Below, piece after piece: positions 6,552 through 28,369 of a stretch of 64,000 nt of DNA (the first letter of the stretch is position 1; each line of letters begins with the position of its first letter). Location: contig CAZTCI010000005.1 in assembly GCA_964612665.1 (NCBI GenBank), positions 175,549-239,548 on the forward strand, read 5' to 3'. The translations under genes were made by a program, and so were the position numbers. Under the pieces are notes generated by a model that was given only the letters and a program-made list of their open reading frames with translations, searched no databases and had not been told where the DNA came from. Source of the DNA: an uncultured Planctomycetales bacterium (GTDB taxonomy: Bacteria; Omnitrophota; Gorgyraeia; Zapsychrales; JAHFFX01).

Positions 6552-8336
6552 ATGAACCCTGTCGTTCCATCCACTAAAAAGCCTCCCATTGCCATTTGGC
6601 TTGGCCTAATCGCCTTGTCGGTTTTTTTTGCGTTTGGGTTAACCTTAAAGGCTGGTTTTATTAATTGGGATGATGACACCCATTTGACCGATAATCCAAC
6701 CGTGCAGGTTCACCGCTTGGCCGATATTCAAAAGATTTTCACAAGCACTGTTAATCAAACTTATATCCCTCTAACGATTTTATCTTTTGCGGTTGAACAC
6801 CGTTTCTTTGGTTTTAATCCATTCGTTTTTCACTTCGATAATTTAATTTTGCATCTTAGCGTCGCGCTTCTGGCTTTTTGGCTGGGGCGGATTTTTGGTT
6901 TATTGGACCGGGCGGCGTTTATTGCGGCGATTGTTTTCGGCATTCATCCGATGCATGTTGAGTCCGTCGCTTGGGTGACCGAGCGCAAGGATGTTTTATA
7001 CGCTTTATTTTATATGCTGGCATTGATTGCCTACAGCTGTTATGTCCGGGAAAAAAAGAAAAGTGCCTTGACGCTATGTTTTATTTTTGGCATTTTGAGT
7101 CTTTTAGCTAAACCGATGGCCTTGAGTCTGCCGCTTGTCTTGTTCGTTTTAGATTGGTTTTTAAAAAGGAAGATAGACAAAAAAAGTTTATTAGAAAAAA
7201 TTCCATTAATATTAATATTTATTCCGCTGACATGGATTACTTATTCCATGAACGCCAGGGTTCCGGGGCATCATTTTTTTGAATCCATGTTGACCTGGAT
7301 TTGGACTTTCTCATTTTATTTTAGGAAATTTTTTCTACCACTCGCTTTAAGTCCGCTTTATATTTTTTCCAAACCAGTATCGCTTATGAATCCGGAATAT
7401 TGGATCGCACTTGCTGTGTTTTTAGTGTTTTGGTATTTGCTTATTTCCCGACGGCATGACCGGCTTGTTGTTTTTGCTGGACTTTTTTATCTGGCATCGA
7501 TTTTCTTTTTACTGCGGTTTGATGATACGCAGGACAATCATATGGTGGCGGACCGGTTTATGTATTTGCCGAGTTTGGGATTTTGTTTTTTAATCGGTGC
7601 AAAATTTGATGAAATTCTGGAATATTTTAAAAAAAGAAAATGGCCGCTCGCGTTTCGAACAGTAGGAATAAGTTTCATAATTTTGTTATGTGTTTTAGGG
7701 GGGCAGACGCGTGAGCAGACAAGGCATTGGAAAGACAGCATCACTTTTTGGGATTGGCTTATTAGTAAACGCAGTAATTTTGCGCAGGGTTATAATTACC
7801 GCGGGGTTGCTTATGTCGATCAACATCAATATGACCGAGCGGTTTTAGATTTTAATAGAGCCGTCCAACTTAAACCGGACTACGTGAAGGCGTATTACAA
7901 CCTGGGTCTTTGTTATCAACAGAAAGGTCAATATGATCTCGCTACTCGAGAACTGACCCGCGCGATTCAATTGGATCCAGAATGTCAGCGCTGTTATATT
8001 GAGCGTGCGCTGGTTTATAAAAATAAGGGAGACCGCGGGCATGCGATCGATGATCTTTCTCAAGCGATCCGCCTAACCCCTCAAAACTTAAAATTTTATT
8101 TGGAACGGGCCAGTCTTTTTTATGAATTGAAAAATTATGACGCGGCCTTGCAAGACTACGCATCCATTATTAAGCTGTATCCTGATGAAGGTGGGGCTTA
8201 CTATAATATGGGTGTTGTTTTATCGGCGAAGAATGAGGCCGCGCTGGCCCTGGCCAATTTATTGAAAGCGAAATCGCTGGGGTATCCGGTGAGTGATGAG
8301 TATATTGAGCGGGTGCGGGTTTCGGTTAGGCGGTAG
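6552..8336 (+). CDS. TMTC-like membrane protein: N-terminal multi-pass GT-C-type/DUF1736 domain plus C-terminal TPR repeats (paralog 1)
   Basis: 594 aa. About 9 TM helices, an NWDDD loop motif, the ESVAWVTERKDVLYALFY block (DUF1736-like) and a C-terminal run of ~7 TPR units (YNLGLCYQQKGQYDLA...). Confidence 0.75.
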   Translation: MNPVVPSTKKPPIAIWLGLIALSVFFAFGLTLKAGFINWDDDTHLTDNPTVQVHRLADIQKIFTSTVNQTYIPLTILSFAVEHRFFGFNPFVFHFDNLILHLSVALLAFWLGRIFGLLDRAAFIAAIVFGIHPMHVESVAWVTERKDVLYALFYMLALIAYSCYVREKKKSALTLCFIFGILSLLAKPMALSLPLVLFVLDWFLKRKIDKKSLLEKIPLILIFIPLTWITYSMNARVPGHHFFESMLTWIWTFSFYFRKFFLPLALSPLYIFSKPVSLMNPEYWIALAVFLVFWYLLISRRHDRLVVFAGLFYLASIFFLLRFDDTQDNHMVADRFMYLPSLGFCFLIGAKFDEILEYFKKRKWPLAFRTVGISFIILLCVLGGQTREQTRHWKDSITFWDWLISKRSNFAQGYNYRGVAYVDQHQYDRAVLDFNRAVQLKPDYVKAYYNLGLCYQQKGQYDLATRELTRAIQLDPECQRCYIERALVYKNKGDRGHAIDDLSQAIRLTPQNLKFYLERASLFYELKNYDAALQDYASIIKLYPDEGGAYYNMGVVLSAKNEAALALANLLKAKSLGYPVSDEYIERVRVSVRR

Positions 8337-8357
8337 TTTTAAAGAAGAAAAAACGCT

Positions 8358-8393
8358 GGGCGGCCCCCGCGCCGTACGTGACAGGGGCCGCCC
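8358..8393. terminator. GC-rich hairpin (GGGCGGCCCC / GGGGCCGCCC, 10-bp stem) between the two TMTC-like paralogs
   Basis: Perfect 10-bp stem with a 16-nt loop. Preceded by AAAGAAGAAAAAACG, so the U-tract is on the minus-strand reading. Very GC-rich in an AT-rich genome. Confidence 0.4.
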
Positions 8394-8413
8394 GCCGTGT
8401 CTTTCGGCCAATC

Positions 8414-10213
8414 ATGCCCTCTGAAAAACCATACCAACGAAAATTTTTTCCCTTCAATAGCCAATGGGCTTTGCTCAGCATTTTACTTATTGTTTTTTTA
8501 GTATATGTTCCGAGCCTGCGCGGCCAATTCCTGAATTGGGACGATGATCTGCATTTAACAAAGAATGATTCTATCCGCTCACTTAGCTTAAATAATTTAA
8601 AAGAAATTGCGTCATCAACGGTCAACAAAATTTACATTCCACTAACCGTTTTGTCCTTTGCCATTGAATATCATTTCGCCGGATTGAACCCTTTCATTTA
8701 TCATCTGGACAACCTTTTACTGTATTTAGCGGTCGTTGGGTTGATTGTTTTATTTGCCATACAGTGTGGATTAAACGAAAGCGCCGCGCTTTTGGGCGCG
8801 CTTTTTTTTGGCCTGCATCCTATTCATGTGGAATCGGTCGCCTGGGTGACCGAACGTAAAGATGTCTTGTATGCGCTTTTTTATCTACTGGCTTTAAATG
8901 CTTATCTTGTCTACATCCGTAAAAATAAAATTCGATTTCTTTGTTTAAGTTTGATCACCGGCGTTTTAAGTATTTTGTCGAAACCGATGGCGCTTAGTTT
9001 GCCGTTCATTTTGTTCTTGTGCGATTGGTTTCTTCAAAGAAGATGGACGCCTCAAGTTGTGTTTGAAAAAATTCCGTTTGTTTTGACGATGGCGCCCATC
9101 GCTTTTGCAACTTATGCCTTCAATGCCCGGATTCCCGGCGGGCACAATAATTCTGGGGAATCAATCTTGACGTGGTTTTGGACGTTTAGTTTTTATCTGC
9201 AAAAGTTTGTGTGGCCGTGGCAATTGATTCCACTGTATGATCTGCCGCAGCCAGTACGTTTAACCAATATAGAATATTTATGGGCGGTTATGGTCACGGC
9301 GATTTTTGTAGCTTTGATGATTTATGCCATGCGTAAACGCCTGATGATGGTTATTTTCGCCGGACTATTTTATTTTGGCTCGATATTTTTCTTGCTGCGC
9401 TTTGACAATTTAAAAGATACGAATATTGTGGCGGACCGATTCATGTATTTACCCAGTTTAGGATTTTGTTTGCTTGGCGGCTGGTTGGCTGATGAATGGC
9501 TTCAGAAAACAAAAGAAAGATTAGGCCCACGGGTTGTTTTGTGTCTCTTGATGATCCTTCTTGGCGGTAAAACGATAATGCAAACACAAATTTGGCATGA
9601 TAGTTTGAGTTTATGGAATTATGTGATTACGCTTAAACCCAAAATTGTGCTGGCTTATAATAGCCGCGGAACCGTTTTATTAGAGGAAGGCAAGGTCGCA
9701 TCCGCGCTTCAAGATTTTAATCACGCGATTGCCATTCGTCCCGATTATGCCAAGGCTTATTATAACCGTGCGACGTTATTTGGCCGTCAGGGCCAGGATG
9801 ATTTAGCTGTTGCTGATTTCACCAACGCAATCAAAATTGATAACACTTATGCCAGCGCTTATTCGGGACGCGGGTTGGTTTATTCAAAACACAATCAATA
9901 TGACTTGGCGCTTGCAGATTTGAATAAGACGCTATTGATCGATGCCAAACGCTATAAAGACTATAACAACCGCGCGATTGTCCACGAACTGCGCGGCGAA
10001 TATGACTTGTCGCTTAAAGATTACGGCAAGGCCCTGGAATTATTTCCAGGTTTTTCCGAAGCGTTGTTTAATCGCGCCCGCGTTTATCGCCTCACCGGAC
10101 AAAATGAACTCGCGCTTAAGGATTTGACCGACGCGCTAACCTTAAAACCTCATTGGACTGAAGCTTATCGTCAACGCGCTGAAATTCTTGGCCAGCAAAA
10201 ACAGAAGCAGTAA
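8414..10213 (+). CDS. TMTC-like membrane protein with C-terminal TPR repeats (paralog 2)
   Basis: Same architecture as 6552..8336 (NWDDD, ESVAWVTERKDVLYALFY, TPR array). Start moved to ATG 8414 (MPSEKPYQRK...) to match the paralog N-terminus. The track start at 8378 is a GTG inside the hairpin loop. Confidence 0.75.
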   Translation: MPSEKPYQRKFFPFNSQWALLSILLIVFLVYVPSLRGQFLNWDDDLHLTKNDSIRSLSLNNLKEIASSTVNKIYIPLTVLSFAIEYHFAGLNPFIYHLDNLLLYLAVVGLIVLFAIQCGLNESAALLGALFFGLHPIHVESVAWVTERKDVLYALFYLLALNAYLVYIRKNKIRFLCLSLITGVLSILSKPMALSLPFILFLCDWFLQRRWTPQVVFEKIPFVLTMAPIAFATYAFNARIPGGHNNSGESILTWFWTFSFYLQKFVWPWQLIPLYDLPQPVRLTNIEYLWAVMVTAIFVALMIYAMRKRLMMVIFAGLFYFGSIFFLLRFDNLKDTNIVADRFMYLPSLGFCLLGGWLADEWLQKTKERLGPRVVLCLLMILLGGKTIMQTQIWHDSLSLWNYVITLKPKIVLAYNSRGTVLLEEGKVASALQDFNHAIAIRPDYAKAYYNRATLFGRQGQDDLAVADFTNAIKIDNTYASAYSGRGLVYSKHNQYDLALADLNKTLLIDAKRYKDYNNRAIVHELRGEYDLSLKDYGKALELFPGFSEALFNRARVYRLTGQNELALKDLTDALTLKPHWTEAYRQRAEILGQQKQKQ

Positions 10214-21781: not shown

Positions 21782-22507
21782 ATGAAGCTTAAACAGGGAT
21801 CTGTTGGAACAATTATTATCGGTATTATTTTTATTTTAACAGGCGTCACGTATTTAGATAATATTGTCAACAGCGCGGCACCCATTGATTGGACAAAAAT
21901 CGTCCGGCAACAACTTCACGATTATGATTTAAAGACCCAAACAATTCAGGCGAAAAAAGAAACCGAATGGATTACCGCCGGCGTTTCCGAAAAAGAGAGC
22001 GCGGCGATGGAAGCTGTTTTACAAAAGAAGATTGAGTCGGGAAGAGACATAACTTTTCAAGCGGTTAAAGATGCCCATAATCTTAACAGTCAGTTTTTGC
22101 TTTTGACGCATCCAATACGTCTTTTTGTATTTTTATTTGTAACGATGTGGCTTATGGTCGTGGGCATAGGTTTTTTGATTATCTTTCCCTGGGCACGCTG
22201 GTTTGCTTTTTTAAGCATCATGTTGAATTATGCTTGGGTCACTTACATTTTTTTATATGAACGTAATGTCGAAGCCCTCTTTGCCAAAGCAGGAGCAGAT
22301 GTCAATAAAATATTTGATATCCCGCCTGTCCCGTCACTCGATTGGTATGAAGACCCTCATTTCCTCATGCAGGCCCTGCAGACCTTCATTTTTATAGGTA
22401 TGGTCATGTATTTTATGTCTCCGGCGGGTAAGGAAATCTTTAAAGAAAAACGAGTTTTTGATTTTAATCAAATTATTAAAAACATCGAAGTCAAGCCGGA
22501 ACAATGA
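21782..22507 (+). CDS. hypothetical integral membrane protein
   Basis: 241 aa, 4-5 TM. Stop overlaps the start of the MtaB-like gene (ATGA). Confidence 0.55.
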   Translation: MKLKQGSVGTIIIGIIFILTGVTYLDNIVNSAAPIDWTKIVRQQLHDYDLKTQTIQAKKETEWITAGVSEKESAAMEAVLQKKIESGRDITFQAVKDAHNLNSQFLLLTHPIRLFVFLFVTMWLMVVGIGFLIIFPWARWFAFLSIMLNYAWVTYIFLYERNVEALFAKAGADVNKIFDIPPVPSLDWYEDPHFLMQALQTFIFIGMVMYFMSPAGKEIFKEKRVFDFNQIIKNIEVKPEQ

Positions 22508-23856
22508 AAGAACATTCCAGTTTAAATACAAATTCGGGTAACGGAATACAATCTGATCGCCGCCGTATTTCTTTTTACACGCTCGGTTGCCGACTGAATC
22601 AAAGTGAGACCGCGGTCATTAAACAAACTTTTCAGGCGCGCGGGTACCGGATTGTTGATTTTGATAAACCAGCGGATATCGTCGTGATTAACACTTGTAC
22701 GGTGACTGAAAACGGAGATGCGGACACGCGCCGACTGGTCAATAAAATTAACCGGCTTAACCCTAAAGTGAAAATCGCGCTGGTCGGCTGTCAGGCGCAG
22801 ATTCAAAAAGAAAAATTAACTGAGCTTAATAACGTGCGTTGGGTCGTCGGCAACGCGAAAAAAATGGACTTGGCTGACATTTTGCACGAAAGTTCAATCA
22901 GCCAAAATGAATCTGAATCTCCGCAAATCATTGCTCCGCCGATTCCGCGAACACATTTCACCATGCCTTTGGCCGCCATTGACCGCGACCATACGCGAGC
23001 TAATTTAAAAATTCAAGACGGATGTGATTTCTTTTGTTCGTTTTGTGAAATTCCTTACGCCCGCGGTCGGGCGCGCAGCCGTGAATTTGAAGATATGATT
23101 AAGGAAGCTAAGATCTTGGTTGAAGCGGGACATAAGGAAATAGTTTTAACTGGAATCAATATTGGCACATATGACTTGGCTCAAAAAAAATTACTTGAAG
23201 TTCTCGATGCGCTCGAAAATATCGACGGAATTTTACGTATCCGGATTTCTTCAATCGAACCCACAACTATTCCATCCGAACTATTTAACCGCATGACCGC
23301 AGGTTCAAAGTTGTGCCGGTACCTTCACATTCCATTGCAAAGCGGCGATGACACGATTTTAGAATTGATGAAACGCCGCTACCGCTTTCAAGAATTTAGT
23401 GATTTCGTGAATCGTGTGGCGGCCGAGGTGCCTGAAATTTGCATCGGCACAGATGTCATCGTTGGTTTTCCCGGCGAGACTGATGCGCGGTTCGAAACGA
23501 CTTACAAACGTCTACACGATTTGCCGCTCGCTTATTTTCATGTTTTTAGTTATTCCGAACGCCATTTCGCGCGCAGCCAGCATTTTTCTGATCCTATTAA
23601 ATCAGAAATTATCCAGCGACGCAGCCAAATGTTACGCGACCTAAGCGCCCGCAAACGTCTTTTATTTTTTAACAGCATGTTAGAAAGTGTTCAATCGGTT
23701 CTCTTTGAACAAAAAAAAGACGGTTTATGGAGCGGACTAACGGACAACTACATTCGCGTAGCCGTTGAAAGTTCTGAAAATATGCATAATCAAATAAGAC
23801 CTGTCCGATTAACCGGCATTCATGGTCAATGTATGAAAGGGATTCTCATTAACTGA
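22504..23856 (+). CDS. MiaB-like tRNA methylthiotransferase (MtaB/RimO family, radical SAM)
   Basis: N-terminal MTTase Cys triad (C..C..C around YTLGCRLNQSE...NTCTV) and the radical-SAM motif CDFFCSFC. Confidence 0.85.
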   Translation: MKEHSSLNTNSGNGIQSDRRRISFYTLGCRLNQSETAVIKQTFQARGYRIVDFDKPADIVVINTCTVTENGDADTRRLVNKINRLNPKVKIALVGCQAQIQKEKLTELNNVRWVVGNAKKMDLADILHESSISQNESESPQIIAPPIPRTHFTMPLAAIDRDHTRANLKIQDGCDFFCSFCEIPYARGRARSREFEDMIKEAKILVEAGHKEIVLTGINIGTYDLAQKKLLEVLDALENIDGILRIRISSIEPTTIPSELFNRMTAGSKLCRYLHIPLQSGDDTILELMKRRYRFQEFSDFVNRVAAEVPEICIGTDVIVGFPGETDARFETTYKRLHDLPLAYFHVFSYSERHFARSQHFSDPIKSEIIQRRSQMLRDLSARKRLLFFNSMLESVQSVLFEQKKDGLWSGLTDNYIRVAVESSENMHNQIRPVRLTGIHGQCMKGILIN

Positions 23857-23944
23857 GCCATCGAAAAGGTGTTTTTGTTAGATGGCTCACCCTGAGCGAG
23901 CCCGTTAAGGCGAGTCGAAGGGTTAAAGACGTTTGTTTCTTCGC

Positions 23945-25225
23945 ATGACCAACGCTTCAAAACTCGAAGTCATTCAAAAATTAATTCAAGCCTTAGGTGA
24001 GATTCCTTTTAAAGATATTGAGAAGCTCGAGGCGTTTAAGAGTGAAGCCGACGCTGTTCTAAAAAATTTTGAAGGAGACACTGAGGAATACCGTTATCGT
24101 TTAGGCGCCGCCCGTTTCGCGCCATGGTCAGCGGATGTCAAAGAAACGGAATATGAACGTAATTGGGAATCCGGTGTGGCGGCAATTCTCAGCATTCTGC
24201 GTGAAGTCGCGGCCAACTCGACAATTGTCAGTAAATCTTCTGCAGCTCATCCGACGGATTCTTCCGATAAAGAAGAAAATCTGGACGCTCCTTTAAACGT
24301 TTCTTCCCCGGAGCCAATTCAATCGGCCCCACTTGTAGAAGAACAAAACATAGAACATGATCAAATAGAATCCTCTGTTGAAAAATCTCAAGACTCTTCC
24401 TCGTTAGAAGAATCCGCAACGATTCCTAATCCTGCGGAATCAACCGACAAAACAGTTACGCCGGTTGAAAAGTCAGAGTCTTCCCAGGCAGAACTCTCAG
24501 AACAATCACCACCGCAATCTGCAGGTCTATTTTCAAAACTTAAATCCATTTTTCAAAAAAAAGAACCGGCCACTGTTCAAAAATTTGAGTCGCCTAAACT
24601 TCCTCAAGCAAATCCGCCCGTTGATTCAAACAATAAAGCCTCCGAAGAATTAAATACGCCTTCACCGGAATCATTGGATCCAAAACCGCCTGAATCCGAA
24701 ACCGTAAATGAAACATCGAAAGAAGCGTCTAAGACAGATTTAATGATGGAGGAGGCGCCCGAAACAAAGCTGCCATTACGCAAACAAATTTTAGTTATTC
24801 ATGGTTCCGACGAAGATATGAAAGATAAAGTGGTTGAATTTCTTTCCCAGAATAAATTGGAGGCTGTCTTAGCTCATGACAAAACAAATTACCTCAAACC
24901 TTTGAATCAACTTTTAAGTGAGTATAATGGTATTAGCTACGTGGTGGTATTGTTGTCATTTGATGCATTCAGTTATTTGAAAGACCAGAAAGTCAAAGAT
25001 GCCAAACTTGTGGCTTTGCAAAATGTTGTTTTCGATTTGGGATATATGCTTGGAAAATTTGGCCGCCACAAAGTGTTCGTTCTTTATCAAGAAAAGAAAA
25101 ATTTTGAACTGCCTTCACAATTCTTTGAAGCTCTCTTTATCGTGTATGACAAAAAAGATAAATACCACACTTGGCAAAAAGAATTGTTAAAAACGCTTAC
25201 TGGTCTTTTCTCTTCTCAAGAATAA
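23945..25225 (+). CDS. protein with N-terminal ~90-aa helical domain, ~190-aa S/E/P/K-rich disordered linker and C-terminal TIR-like nucleotide-binding domain (PF10137/COG4271-type), paralog 1
   Basis: C-terminus ILVIHGSDED...YVVVLLSFDAF...ALQNVVFDLGYMLGKFGRHKVFVLY matches my recollection of the TIR-like family core (HG.D...VLLT.DD...RARQNVIFELGYF.GKLGR.RV). First ATG at 23945. The track's TTG at 23933 is an alternative start. Confidence 0.55.
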   Translation: MTNASKLEVIQKLIQALGEIPFKDIEKLEAFKSEADAVLKNFEGDTEEYRYRLGAARFAPWSADVKETEYERNWESGVAAILSILREVAANSTIVSKSSAAHPTDSSDKEENLDAPLNVSSPEPIQSAPLVEEQNIEHDQIESSVEKSQDSSSLEESATIPNPAESTDKTVTPVEKSESSQAELSEQSPPQSAGLFSKLKSIFQKKEPATVQKFESPKLPQANPPVDSNNKASEELNTPSPESLDPKPPESETVNETSKEASKTDLMMEEAPETKLPLRKQILVIHGSDEDMKDKVVEFLSQNKLEAVLAHDKTNYLKPLNQLLSEYNGISYVVVLLSFDAFSYLKDQKVKDAKLVALQNVVFDLGYMLGKFGRHKVFVLYQEKKNFELPSQFFEALFIVYDKKDKYHTWQKELLKTLTGLFSSQE

Positions 25226-25332
25226 GGTTGTTTTAACATTATCAAGGAGAAAAGACCTAGTACTAGACTTTTGCAATGTAAAAGTCAGTAAAGAGCAAGG
25301 ATGTCTTTAACCTTACATAAGGAGCGCTGCTT

Positions 25333-25851
25333 ATGGATAAAGCTGTGACACCGTCGATTACCGTTAGTTTTGACTATAATTTTTGGGAATATATGGATGC
25401 GTGCCGCGTGCACTTTGCTAATAAAGGCGGAAATAAAAAATATGTTTTAGCCGCCGGCGGCGTTTTACTGCTAGGCGTAATTTTATGTGTGGCCTTCGGA
25501 TATTCTTGGTATCGAGCGATATTTATTTACGCTGGCATTCTGATGGAAATTTCCCTCCTGCTTAAATTTTTCCTGAGCGCCAAACGTTATTTTGAAAGCA
25601 ATCCGCGTGCTAAAGAAACACATACGCTCACTTTTTTTGATGAACGGATTCTTTTTAAACTGCAAACCATGACAATTGAACTGAAGTGGACGCAGTATTC
25701 GAGTTTTAGAGAAGATCCTAAATTTTATTTATTGTACTATGGGCCGGAAAGTTTTTTGATTATCCCAAAGCGCGCGTTTAATGCCCAAGACCTTCCACGG
25801 TTTGACCAGCTTTTAAAAAGTAAAATAATTGAAAAGCAGGAAGACGATTGA
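25333..25851 (+). CDS. YcxB-like small membrane protein (2 TM plus C-terminal PH-like domain)
   Basis: 172 aa with two TM helices then ...FYLLYYGPESFLIIPKRAF..., the characteristic YcxB-like tail. TAAGGAG lies before the ATG. Confidence 0.55.
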   Translation: MDKAVTPSITVSFDYNFWEYMDACRVHFANKGGNKKYVLAAGGVLLLGVILCVAFGYSWYRAIFIYAGILMEISLLLKFFLSAKRYFESNPRAKETHTLTFFDERILFKLQTMTIELKWTQYSSFREDPKFYLLYYGPESFLIIPKRAFNAQDLPRFDQLLKSKIIEKQEDD

Positions 25852-27050
25852 TGGCGCCCAAAACGGACACCGAAAAATTCGAAGCGATCCAAAAATTGAT
25901 CGACGCTGCCACTGGTCTGCCTTACCGTGATAAAAAGCAGTTGGATATTTTTCAGAACCATGCGGACGTTGTGTTAACTGAACTTTTTGGGGAAAAAAGC
26001 CATTACCGCCGTGAGTTGGCATCGATTCGTTTTGTGCCGCGTTCGTTTTATTCCAATGAAGAAGATTACCGCGAAAGCTGGCAGACAGGGATTTCAGCGG
26101 TCTTAAAATTTCTTGAAGACCTTAAAAAATCCGAAGGGATCGCTTGGCCGCCTGCTCAATCTATGGTTAATCCTGTTTCATTGCCGCATGATTTAGATTT
26201 ATCTGATGTCCCGCCCAATCCATTTCATACCGATTCGAATCCACCGCCGGAATTGTTTCCAGAAACAAAAAAAAATACTTCGTCTGCAAAAAAAGAACCG
26301 GTTGACTATATCCTGGAAGTCGATTTCGCCCCAGACGGCGATGCTATTAATATCGATGATATGACGCCGGCAAACAGTAAATCTGTTCAAACAGAATCTA
26401 ATGCTTTTATGCCGCCGCCAATGGAAAAAAAACTTCCGGAATTACCGCCCTTAAACGAAGATTCTAAGATCGACAAACTGGAATCAGTCGTTGAGAAAAT
26501 GAAAAACAAAAGGCTGCCTGTAAAAGACCTTGCTGGCGATAGTATGCCTTCGCCGTCAAGGATTTCTGAAAAAGATTTTGCAGATGCGGAATCAACTTAC
26601 CAATCTGTCTATGTCGTTAGCAGCCATGATGAATTATTGGAACAGGAAGTGGTTTCCGTGGGCGAGCGGTTAGGGCTGGATTTGATTGTGGTTAATTTCC
26701 GCAAGGAACCTGAGGCGTCGCTTGATAAACGTTTTGCGTTGTATCCGGCGGTAGGCTTTGCGATCGTAATTATGGGCGCGGATGACCTGGCGCATGCCAA
26801 AGATCAAGGGATGCACGAACCGCGTCTGCGCTGTGCGCAGCACCTTGTTTTCGAATTGGGTTTTCTTTTGGGCAAATTAGGGCGGGAAAGGCTTTTTGTT
26901 TTGTATCCAGACTTTAAAGATTTTGAACTGCCGACGAGTTTCTTTGAACTCATGTATACGCCGTACAAACAAAATGGAAGCTGGCAGTGGGATTTGTTAC
27001 GGCAATTAAAAAAAGCCGGTTACACTGTGGATGCGAATAGGTTATTATAA
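25851..27050 (+). CDS. TIR-like (PF10137-type) domain protein, paralog 2, same tripartite layout
   Basis: The N-terminus is homologous to paralog 1 (EAIQKLIDA...YRRELASIRF). C-terminus VYVVSSHDEL...FAIVIMGADD...CAQHLVFELGFLLGKLGRERLFVLY. Its ATG overlaps the YcxB-like TGA (TGATG). Confidence 0.55.
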   Translation: MAPKTDTEKFEAIQKLIDAATGLPYRDKKQLDIFQNHADVVLTELFGEKSHYRRELASIRFVPRSFYSNEEDYRESWQTGISAVLKFLEDLKKSEGIAWPPAQSMVNPVSLPHDLDLSDVPPNPFHTDSNPPPELFPETKKNTSSAKKEPVDYILEVDFAPDGDAINIDDMTPANSKSVQTESNAFMPPPMEKKLPELPPLNEDSKIDKLESVVEKMKNKRLPVKDLAGDSMPSPSRISEKDFADAESTYQSVYVVSSHDELLEQEVVSVGERLGLDLIVVNFRKEPEASLDKRFALYPAVGFAIVIMGADDLAHAKDQGMHEPRLRCAQHLVFELGFLLGKLGRERLFVLYPDFKDFELPTSFFELMYTPYKQNGSWQWDLLRQLKKAGYTVDANRLL

Positions 27051-27074
27051 ACAAAGTAGCGAGTAGCTACTTTA

Positions 27075-27617
27075 ATGGAGGTGTTGATGCATCAAAGTTT
27101 TTTCAAAAGAATTTTACTTTATGAATTTATTTTGGGTTTTCTGATACAAGCTACCGTTGTAAAAGCTGAACCACCGGCAGAAAAAACAGTTCAGCTTAAT
27201 CTCTGCTCCGACCAAAAATTAGGGTTCAAAATGAAGTGCAATCCGGATTGGAAACTGCAAGCTCAGAATGACAACATGTTTATTATTTTAAGTGAAAGTC
27301 CTAACGAGGTTGTCACAGCCACGATTTCAAAATCGAAAAATGAGGTGAAGAATATTTCAGAATTGACACGTTCTGTCTTGCAGGAGATTGGTCAGTACGA
27401 GAATTTCTTTACAATCACTAAAACAACTGTCGGCACTCAACCCGCGCTCAAAGTCGAAGCCAAATCAAAAGAATTCCCTGAAATCCAACTGTATGATTTT
27501 TACGTCGTGCGCAACAATCATCTTTATTCGATTCTTTTTTCCTGTAAACCTGAAAGCCGTTTTACAGCCTACAAACCGCTTTTCATAAAAATCATTGAAA
27601 GTTTTGAGTTTATTTAA
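27075..27617 (+). CDS. secreted hypothetical protein (Sec signal peptide)
   Basis: 180 aa. N-terminal h-region ILLYEFILGFLIQATVVKA followed by a mature ~150-aa domain. Separated from TIR-like 2 by 24 nt. Confidence 0.55.
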   Translation: MEVLMHQSFFKRILLYEFILGFLIQATVVKAEPPAEKTVQLNLCSDQKLGFKMKCNPDWKLQAQNDNMFIILSESPNEVVTATISKSKNEVKNISELTRSVLQEIGQYENFFTITKTTVGTQPALKVEAKSKEFPEIQLYDFYVVRNNHLYSILFSCKPESRFTAYKPLFIKIIESFEFI

Positions 27618-28369
27618 TGAAACGATTTTTATATTTCAGTATAGTGATCACAGCCGTTTTTAGCATGCAATCACCGCTGTTTGCTGAAACATCTATGGGA
27701 AACAAAGGCTTTGCGTTAGTTGAACTTTTTACCTCTGAAGGCTGTTCCAATTGTCCTCCGGCGGATGAAATTTTATTAAGCTTAACCGATATGGTGCGTG
27801 TTAGGAGTTTGCCAGTTTATACCTTATCGTTTCATGTTGATTACTGGAACAAGTTAGGATGGACCGATCCTTTCAGCCAACCGCTTTTTACGCAACGGCA
27901 AATTGCCTACGCCGACCGTTTTCATTTACAAAGTATTTTTACGCCGCAAATGATTATTAATGGAAAAGAGAATTTTGTCGGTTCCCGCGCTGATTTGGCC
28001 CAAGATGCAATTAGTGACGCCTTGCAAAAAAATTCTACGGTTAAAATTAATGTTCATTCTTTAAAGCGCTCAGAAAACGAAGCCGTCTTTGAATATACGC
28101 TGGAGAACGCTCGATTAAACTGGCTATTGGAGGCCGCTTTGGTTGAAGGTCACGCCGTGAGTGAAGTCAATCGCGGCGAAAATGAGGGAAGAACTTTACA
28201 GCACGCTCATGTGGTTAGAGAGTTAAAGAGTGTGAAGCTTCAAGAGTTGCAAGGTCAAATAACTTTTTCATTGTCGAAGCTTTCAAACGCAAAGGACAGT
28301 GCCGTTATCTTTTTTCTCCAAGATCCTGTAAGTCTAGAGGTTGTGGCGGCTGCACAAGTTAATTTGTGA
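27617..28369 (+). CDS. DUF1223 domain protein (secreted, CxxC-containing)
   Basis: VELFTSEGCSNCPPADE is the DUF1223 hallmark. Signal peptide present. Start overlaps the previous stop (TAATG). Confidence 0.7.
   Translation: MKRFLYFSIVITAVFSMQSPLFAETSMGNKGFALVELFTSEGCSNCPPADEILLSLTDMVRVRSLPVYTLSFHVDYWNKLGWTDPFSQPLFTQRQIAYADRFHLQSIFTPQMIINGKENFVGSRADLAQDAISDALQKNSTVKINVHSLKRSENEAVFEYTLENARLNWLLEAALVEGHAVSEVNRGENEGRTLQHAHVVRELKSVKLQELQGQITFSLSKLSNAKDSAVIFFLQDPVSLEVVAAAQVNL

Follow-up and report, generated by a model that had tools for sequence, protein, structure and literature searches.

The 64,000 nucleotides (nt) of contig CAZTCI010000005.1 analyzed here (positions 175,549 to 239,548), referred to as the window, belong to an uncultured bacterium of the Omnitrophota and encode two paralogous TIR-like proteins, TIR-1 and TIR-2. 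Both are homologs of the PDC-S35/Cap12 family in which the linker between the two folded domains is expanded, the gene is duplicated and retained as an A/B pair in the core chromosome, and the NAD pocket is remodeled, with a carboxylate kept at the catalytic position. We tentatively favor the reading that the members of this vertically fixed pair act together and that the retained carboxylate cleaves a nucleotide. The pair probably no longer works like its relatives in defense islands. The long linker, the A/B pairing, the remodeled pocket and the vertical fixation are new; the underlying candidate family was already known.

Five open reading frames (ORFs) on the + strand were read from the DNA, and their likely starts were set by the DNA together with database versions of the proteins. 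TIR-1, the A-lineage paralog, most likely starts at ATG 23945 and comprises 426 amino acids (aa; 23945..25225, +). Its database version, P0010, begins with MTNASK, and this model replaces the 430 aa from TTG 23933, the mechanical ORF on which an earlier sequence-only reading of the locus had relied. TIR-2, the B-lineage paralog, starts at ATG 25851 and comprises 399 aa (25851..27050, +). The two proteins align end to end with 27% identity (E 3e-41), and a simple hydropathy scan found neither a transmembrane (TM) segment nor a signal peptide in them. Each is built from an N-terminal domain (N-domain; TIR-1 aa 1-94, 23945-24226, +; TIR-2 aa 1-97, 25851-26141, +), a disordered linker (TIR-1, acidic, aa 95-275, 24227-24769, +; TIR-2 aa 98-246, 26142-26588, +), and a TIR-like domain of family PF10137 (TIR-1 aa 276-426, 24770-25222, +; TIR-2 aa 247-399, 26589-27047, +).

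The assignment of both C-termini to a TIR-like family, made from the sequence alone, is borne out by a hidden Markov model (HMM) search. PF10137 (CAP12-PCTIR_TIR) matches TIR-1 at aa 285-397 with 63.1 bits and TIR-2 at aa 254-372 with 47.6 bits, both above the gathering score of 24.7 bits. In the AlphaFold2 (AF2) model of TIR-2, the N-domain (1-95) and the alpha/beta C-domain (250-399) reach predicted local distance difference test (pLDDT) values of about 96 and 95, respectively. Fold comparison, which rests on this TIR-2 model, gave the TIR domains of Cap12 TIR-STING (9lmq and 7un8) as top Foldseek matches with E between 5e-6 and 1e-4, and the TIR domain of MyD88 as next best.

A kinship with anti-phage proteins, which the sequence-only reading had suggested, likewise stands. 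The best PADLOC match of both proteins is the PDC-S35 model PDLC05005 (E 2.7e-31 and 2.8e-39); other models of PDC-S35, four in number, match them as well. PDC systems are 145 candidates predicted by guilt-by-embedding (Payne et al., 10.1101/2024.01.29.577857). The matched model consists of the same N-domain followed by PF10137 and so agrees with the window proteins in both folded domains and in their order. Thus, the tripartite layout, previously set apart from CBASS, Pycsar and Thoeris, is new only in its long linker: the HMM match of the window proteins is split into two stretches, whereas proteins with a short linker match PDLC05005 end to end with E 1e-72 to 1e-78. Such PDC-S35 proteins are compact (approximately 245-280 aa, linker 10-29 aa) and encoded by a single gene, in contrast to the tandem A/B pair of the window. 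Short-linker relatives are found in restriction-modification (R-M) systems and defense islands on mobile elements. Of the two whose context was inspected, protein P0176 is encoded inside a type I R-M operon (HsdM, HsdS, TIR, unknown gene, HsdR) beside GmrSD on a mobile element, and the gene for P0160 neighbors those for Shedu SduA_C, for an AAA_15/21 ATPase and for an HNH nuclease; the TIR domain of the short-linker class matches 1154 plasmid records. The window pair differs in its location on the core chromosome, its vertical inheritance, and its NAD pocket, in which R, N and D of the full set are not conserved.

The N-domain shared by both proteins, earlier described as helical and unplaceable, proved to be a real folding unit. 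An AF2 model from a 60-sequence alignment shows a compact helical bundle (pLDDT 94.3, predicted template modeling score (pTM) 0.84) with helices at residues 6-21, 28-46, 51-57 and 70-94. No Pfam model matched it even at E<=10, and the N-domain of TIR-2 alone matches PDLC05005 at positions 5-93 with E 1.4e-6. A profile built from three N-domains and run exhaustively against 1.84 billion cluster representatives matched 321 of them at E<=1e-3 and 90 at E<=1e-10; this search was far richer than a word-indexed protein search with a long-linker alignment, which gave few family members. Among the best 150 representatives, the fusion partner is PF10137 in 61, Hypoth_Ymh in five, TIR_2 in four, and a DpnII-MboI restriction endonuclease domain in three; EAD7 (two), AbiTii (one) and GNAT (one) are rarer. 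The same N-domain is thus shared with other conflict proteins, where it is fused to HEPN/Hypoth_Ymh (PD-Lambda-3_B-like), to SpbK/ThsB-like TIR_2, to DpnII-MboI, and also to a PDC-S05-like domain, AbiTii or EAD7. These proteins differ from the window pair in their effectors, their short linkers and, as far as sampled, their mobile or defense-island context. Judged by its sequence relatives, the four-helix bundle of approximately 95 aa is a widespread conflict-system module that has neither a Pfam model nor a name, and a family description would improve the annotation of candidate defense genes.

Two further observations concern this domain. Three proteins (P0025, P0039 and P0069) carry two or three tandem N-domains ahead of one PF10137 domain, which suggests that the bundle is a unit of sensing or assembly that can be repeated. 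In two Omnitrophota loci (L019 11294-11953 and L037 11297-12016) a protein of 219-239 aa contains the N-domain without a TIR domain, and a DUF1223 gene follows directly.

The linkers, 181 aa in TIR-1 and 149 aa in TIR-2, are rich in S/E/P/K or P/D/S/K and carry net charges of -20 and -11, respectively. No tandem repeats were found in them. In the full-length AF2 model of TIR-2, the linker (98-245) stays below pLDDT 50 save for a short helix at 207-218; together with the compositional bias, this supports the disorder that had been read from the sequence. The spacing between N-domain and TIR domain is bimodal across the family, with about 45 representatives at 10-29 aa and about 20 at 60-274 aa, and both window proteins fall into the long-linker group. 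In a neighbor-joining tree of the TIR domains, the long-linker proteins stand apart from the short-linker class, except for two that group with it. Most of the divergence between orthologous TIR-like proteins falls in the linkers (90-229 aa long in the orthologs compared), which are 22-41% identical, compared with 43-68% in the N-domain and 46-65% in the TIR domain.

Short motifs are nevertheless kept within the B linkers. Motif 1, DYILEVDFAPDGDAINIDDM in TIR-2 (26304..26363, +; consensus DY.LE.(E/D)F.PE..(I/V)N), and motif 2, KIDKLESVVEKMKNKR (26466..26513, +; consensus KI(D/E)QLE..IEK.K), are both present in all five B copies examined, three of which have no N-domain. Motif 2 contains the sole linker helix predicted by AF2 (TIR-2 aa 207-218). 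The linker of TIR-1 carries a basic hydrophobic island, GLFSKLKSIFQKK (24524..24562, +), and the alignment shows similar motifs in the A-lineage orthologs. These islands have hydrophobic moments of 0.28-0.65 (linker median about 0.2) and a charge of +2 to +5 in most A copies, with -1 in P0015. To judge by these sequence features, the TIR-1 island may form an amphipathic binding helix. A membrane-targeting helix was considered for the A-lineage linkers and set aside as a weak idea: the moments are only moderate, and GLFSKLKSIFQKK is not the maximum of the TIR-1 linker. Some TIR-like copies lack the N-domain and start inside the linker (L013 1130-1627, L015 10086-10958, L022 11313-12188, and L044 12724-13527). 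The first three are B copies that keep both linker motifs and the TIR domain, and the last belongs to the A lineage.

A scan of species-representative genomes with TIR-2 gave no match, the species of the window not being among the representatives, and the flanking radical-SAM protein was therefore used as query. This protein is a MiaB/MtaB-like radical-SAM methylthiotransferase (UPF0004 and Radical_SAM in Pfam; 22504..23856, +) and forms the conserved upstream anchor of the TIR-like slot. Its orthologs (52-64% identity) were found at 32 loci, all of them in Candidatus Omnitrophota. A TIR-like gene follows it directly in L008, L012, L014, L015, L017, L022, L027, L044, L047, L049, and L053. Elsewhere the slot is empty, holds DUF1223 alone (10 species), or holds an N-domain-only gene with DUF1223 (two species); where TIR-like genes occur, there is either one, often without N-domain, or a tandem pair.

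Tandem pairs occur in seven species (the window, L013, L014, L015, L017, L044, and L053). Every one of them combines an A copy with a B or B' copy; the A copy precedes B in three species and follows B' in four. The lineages are told apart by an N-domain motif, RF.PW in the A lineage (TIR-1-like) and RF.PSSFYS in the B and B' copies (TIR-2-like). An ortholog of TIR-2 with 44% identity, P0012, is a single gene in window-like synteny (Dus, Glycos_trans_3N, membrane protein, radical-SAM, TIR-like, pilin, PKD), and the order Dus, GT3N, DUF423, mem241, radical-SAM, TIR-like, pilin, PKD is common to L008, L014, L015, L017, L044, and L053.

The tree of radical-SAM proteins, which takes in the carriers with a near-complete radical-SAM gene (L013, L017, and L053 were not placed), joins six A/B carriers in a single subclade, every sampled member of which keeps at least one copy. 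This points to vertical inheritance with stable retention rather than scattering by transfer. The surroundings are of the same kind: the 24 kb upstream of the block are housekeeping (ArgRS, RecJ, peptidases, transporters, Dus), no mobile or defense genes were found within them, and PADLOC matched none of the neighbors save a generic RecQ/DpdF helicase. Consequently, the locus is a core-chromosome slot that is vertically inherited in one Omnitrophota subclade and not a defense island. Within the block, the TIR-like proteins of the window and L015 are 34-35% identical, the housekeeping neighbors 55-64%, and three further neighbors, an exported protein termed SP, DUF1223 and YcxB, 42-47%.

Two observations concern the same stretch of backbone. 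Between DUF423 and the radical-SAM gene lies a gene for a multi-TM protein of 241 aa without Pfam family (window 21782-22507). Among the genes scanned, homologs were detected only in the A/B-bearing subclade (window, L008, L014, L015, and L044); L053, too, has a 243-aa gene at the equivalent position. In L020 (3842-4626), a chimeric ORF of 139 aa made of radical-SAM N-terminal and Glycos_trans_3N fragments, together with a second DUF423, lies upstream of the intact radical-SAM gene; this partial duplication suggests local rearrangement at the locus.

The closest solved structures, by sequence as well as by fold, belong to the same PF10137 subfamily and come from Cap12 of the CBASS systems (TIR-STING; SfSTING, PDB 7UN8) and PycTIR of the Pycsar systems. 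In SfSTING, R78 and N80 contact NAD+, E84 is catalytic, and D110 is contributed by the partner protomer (PMC9402430). A phmmer alignment to 7un8 maps these residues onto R.QNVVFELG and ELP(S/T)D. At the four pocket positions R/N/E/D, TIR-1 reads L-N-D-Q and TIR-2 reads A-H-E-S. The catalytic column is thus Asp in TIR-1 (D364 of the 426-aa protein; alpha-C motif VFDLG, 25028..25042, +) and Glu in TIR-2 (E336 of the 399-aa protein; VFELG, 26847..26861, +), and the latter shares with Cap12 and PycTIR the alpha-C motif with its catalytic Glu. At least one Glu is present in all five pairs in which both columns are readable (window, L015, L017, L044, and L053). In L013 and L014 the sequence breaks off within the second gene; the first copy, the only one scored, has Glu. 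In the A/B clade as a whole, 15 of 16 proteins have E or D at this column; in the short-linker class, Glu occurs in 41 of 42 and the D110 equivalent in 37 of 38. The alpha-C motif LG.L.GKLGR..VFVL is strongly conserved in the alignment, and in SfSTING the alpha-C helix forms the core of the TIR dimer.

In strand beta-1, the HG motif is kept by 10 of 20 long-linker proteins versus 46 of 53 others, and TIR-2 reads VVSSHD in place of VHGHD. The sequence-only reading had seen correctly that HG is kept in TIR-1 and lost in TIR-2; it had missed the exchange of D for E at the catalytic column. Its proposal of an active TIR-1 and a regulatory TIR-2 finds no support here, since TIR-1 is the copy with Asp, TIR-2 keeps Glu, and both pocket sets are altered. 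Loss of HG also fails as an argument by itself, because the SfSTING residue equivalent to its G is Ser (S10).

In the reading that we tentatively prefer, the ancestor was a protein of the PDC-S35-type family, in which a four-helix bundle of approximately 95 aa precedes a Cap12/PycTIR-type TIR. In the Omnitrophota subclade, its gene was fixed in the core chromosome directly after the MiaB/MtaB-like radical-SAM gene and duplicated into an A/B pair, which is old and confined to this subclade. The linker grew from 10-29 aa to an acidic disordered tether of 60-274 aa with short lineage-specific motifs. Of the four NAD+-holding residues of SfSTING, three were lost; alpha-C and the acid at the catalytic position were kept. 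TIR-1 and TIR-2, both cytoplasmic, may associate through the alpha-C surfaces of their TIR domains, through linker motifs docking on the helical bundle, or through both, and would thereby yield an A/B hetero-oligomer. Sensing or assembly would fall to the N-terminal bundles, in the same way as in the defense-island relatives. The retained carboxylate, Glu in TIR-2, might then cleave NAD+ bound in a different manner, or a related N-glycoside, presumably when triggered in a response to stress or infection.

Several points weigh against this proposal. All four residues R/N/E/D are retained by 30 of 38 short-linker proteins and by no member of the A/B clade (0 of 16), and with the pocket incomplete NADase activity may be lost. 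At the catalytic column, the single copies in L008 and in L022 carry Asp, and outliers carry Q, G or H. Core-genome location with stable vertical inheritance is unusual for defense genes, and PDC-S35 itself is a predicted candidate (10.1101/2024.01.29.577857). AF2 places the domains of TIR-2 relative to each other without confidence (pTM 0.48), and the neighbor-joining trees carry no support values.

The alternative that comes closest we regard as possible, if doubtful: the pair may be a domesticated, non-catalytic TIR scaffold or adaptor in the manner of MyD88, in which the bundle and the tether motifs recruit partners in a housekeeping role. The intact pocket set is absent from all 16 clade members while the motif of the alpha-C dimer interface is conserved, the genes are passed on vertically and stably at one fixed core locus with housekeeping flanks, the linkers contain conserved short linear motifs, and MyD88 TIR domains follow Cap12 as the next best fold. 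Animal adaptor TIRs such as MyD88 likewise combine the TIR fold with conserved oligomerization surfaces and an enzymatic pocket that is not conserved; they show no sequence relationship beyond the fold, and a bacterial adaptor role is hypothetical. However, 15 of the 16 proteins retain an acid at the catalytic column, where E to D is the substitution seen most often; this pattern suggests that a carboxylate is under constraint. The TIR-like genes are also among the fastest-evolving of the block (34-35% versus 58-64% for the neighbors), which fits a conflict role better, and in sister lineages the A copy or the N-domain is gone.

A stronger form of domestication seems about equally doubtful to us. 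Here a defense TIR would have become an obligate A/B heteromer that abandoned or re-specified its NADase pocket and functions by TIR-TIR assembly, bundle and tether motifs, perhaps tied to the PsbP-like SP. If true, prokaryotes would have a counterpart of their own to non-enzymatic adaptor TIRs, or else a TIR-fold enzyme that acts on a new substrate.

That TIR-1 and TIR-2 are simply duplicated abortive-infection NADases of PDC-S35 type appears unlikely. Each would deplete NAD+ by itself once its N-domain senses a phage, the substitutions being tolerated. Homology to the PDC-S35 and Cap12/PycTIR effector models, the relatives in defense islands and on mobile elements, and the catalytic Glu kept by TIR-2 and most clade members agree with this explanation. 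It is opposed by the pocket, in which the near-invariant short-linker residues R, N (approximately 33/42) and D (37/38) are counted as lost across the A/B clade, and by the thinning of the HG motif in the long-linker proteins given above. Neither a defense-island context nor the turnover expected of defense genes is seen, and the consistent pairing of A with B speaks against either copy acting on its own.

In contrast to Cap12 and PycTIR, the window TIRs have no fused STING, SAVED or cNMP-binding sensor domain, the NCBIfam Cap12 equivalog gives them 23-27 bits against a cut-off of 450, and the equivalents of R78, N80, and D110 are not conserved in the A/B clade. As the sequence-only reading had stated, no cyclase, SAVED or STING gene lies among the scanned neighbors; in particular, no Pfam or PADLOC match to a CD-NTase or pyrimidine cyclase was obtained among the genes scanned in window 209-33417 (some ORFs) or in the syntenic loci. 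With regard to Thoeris, the proteins match no ThsB or ThsA model of PADLOC, and no neighbor resembling a ThsA-type effector (SIR2/Macro/TM) was found. A literature search on PDC-S35, on YcxB function and on COG4271-type proteins with this N-domain returned nothing.

Between and behind the TIR-like genes lie the three further genes of the block, all in the places given by the sequence-only reading according to Pfam and the hydropathy scan. The YcxB-like protein (25333..25851, +; 172 aa, preceded by an AAGGAG Shine-Dalgarno sequence) matches PF14317 with 52.2 bits (gathering 23.3) and has two TM helices, seen as two hydrophobic segments at about aa 35-85. The exported protein SP (27087..27617, +; 176 aa) has a signal peptide and most likely starts at ATG 27087, with GGAGG before it. 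It contains two invariant Cys (LCSDQKLGFKMKCNPDW), its similarity to PsbP/PsbP_2 is sub-threshold, and its profile found nothing among PDB sequences. The exported DUF1223 protein (27617..28369, +; 250 aa) has a signal peptide and a CxxC motif and matches PF06764 over the full model length with 190.4 bits (gathering 30.7). As to spacing, the 107 nt between TIR-1 and YcxB, the TGATG overlap of YcxB stop and TIR-2 start, and the TAATG overlap of SP stop and DUF1223 start were confirmed from the DNA; the gap from TIR-2 to SP is 36 nt rather than the 24 nt given before, owing to the SP start at ATG 27087.

It is quite improbable that TIR-1, YcxB, TIR-2, SP, and DUF1223 form one membrane-associated module for nucleotide signaling or defense, as first envisaged. 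The full order does recur in a second species (L015/L016/L038) with proteins 34-47% identical to those of the window, stop and start codons overlap, and SP follows five of five pairs with readable downstream sequence and occurs in none of 32 other species loci. Thus, the synteny expected of such a module is found for the pair itself (seven species), for SP, and for YcxB between the copies in one further species; it is not found for YcxB and DUF1223 as consistent partners. Of the 15 species loci that contain DUF1223, 10 lack a TIR-like gene; DUF1223 stands alone after radical-SAM in 10 species and is missing from the pair-bearing loci L044 and L053, and it is therefore an independent occupant of the slot. 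A YcxB ortholog lies between A and B copies only in L015/L016/L038 besides the window, i.e., in two species; the other five of the seven species with a pair lack it. Both the independence of DUF1223 and the rarity of YcxB are established, and the two genes are facultative neighbors in a variable slot. Tight spacing is general along the backbone, YcxB, SP and DUF1223 have no PADLOC match, and SP and DUF1223 are exported, unlike the TIR-like proteins, which have neither TM segment nor signal peptide. The absence of SP from single-copy species amounts to one loss in two sister taxa, so that its co-occurrence with the pair is confounded by phylogeny. A link of SP to the TIR-like pair, with SP working in a different compartment, is therefore only suggestive; SP and the CxxC-bearing DUF1223 could form a redox pair in the periplasm that has no relation to the TIR-like proteins in the cytoplasm.

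Further copies of SP lie at L015 11028-11552, L017 3275-3805, L044 13467-14096, and L053 9566-10706, the last being a tandem duplication.

That the genes are decaying relics of an ancient defense-gene insertion that drift without function is highly improbable: pocket residues are degenerate, linker length is highly variable and truncated copies without N-domain or TIR domain occur in L019, L022, L027, L037, and L049, but both window ORFs are intact, their folded domains are predicted at pLDDT of about 95, domains and short linker motifs persist between species that share only about 60% identity in their housekeeping proteins, and the pair is retained in seven species.

Of the remaining features, a hairpin with an 8-bp stem, AAAGTAGC-GAGTA-GCTACTTT (27053..27073, +; -14.1 kcal/mol, z -2.6), follows the TIR-2 stop and precedes the Shine-Dalgarno sequence of the SP gene. 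Since it has no U-tract on the + strand, it is no classic terminator; a role in processing or stability is possible. The other intergenic folds of the locus are unremarkable, and no Rfam families were found in the window. Scans for promoter-like sites (27 versus 19.2 ± 3.8 in shuffled sequence, about two standard deviations) and terminator-like sites (12 versus 12.0) were not used as evidence. Elsewhere in the window, two adjacent tandem TPR-repeat proteins of 594 and 611 aa are encoded at 6552-10213, and a RecQ helicase at 31252-33417 matches the DpdF and PsyrT helicase models of PADLOC with E 4e-231. Because it has RQC, HRDC and HTH_40 domains and no Dpd partner lies among the scanned neighbors, this is most likely a generic helicase match.

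Bacterial TIR domains have mostly been studied as NAD+-consuming immune enzymes on mobile defense islands. The locus described here shows the Cap12-type TIR subfamily in a different state, namely fixed in the core genome, paired, held on long tethers, and with most residues of the NAD pocket gone. A pair that is still catalytic would extend the known sequence space of Cap12-type TIRs and possibly also their range of substrates, whereas one that is not would exemplify the conversion of a bacterial TIR into an adaptor.

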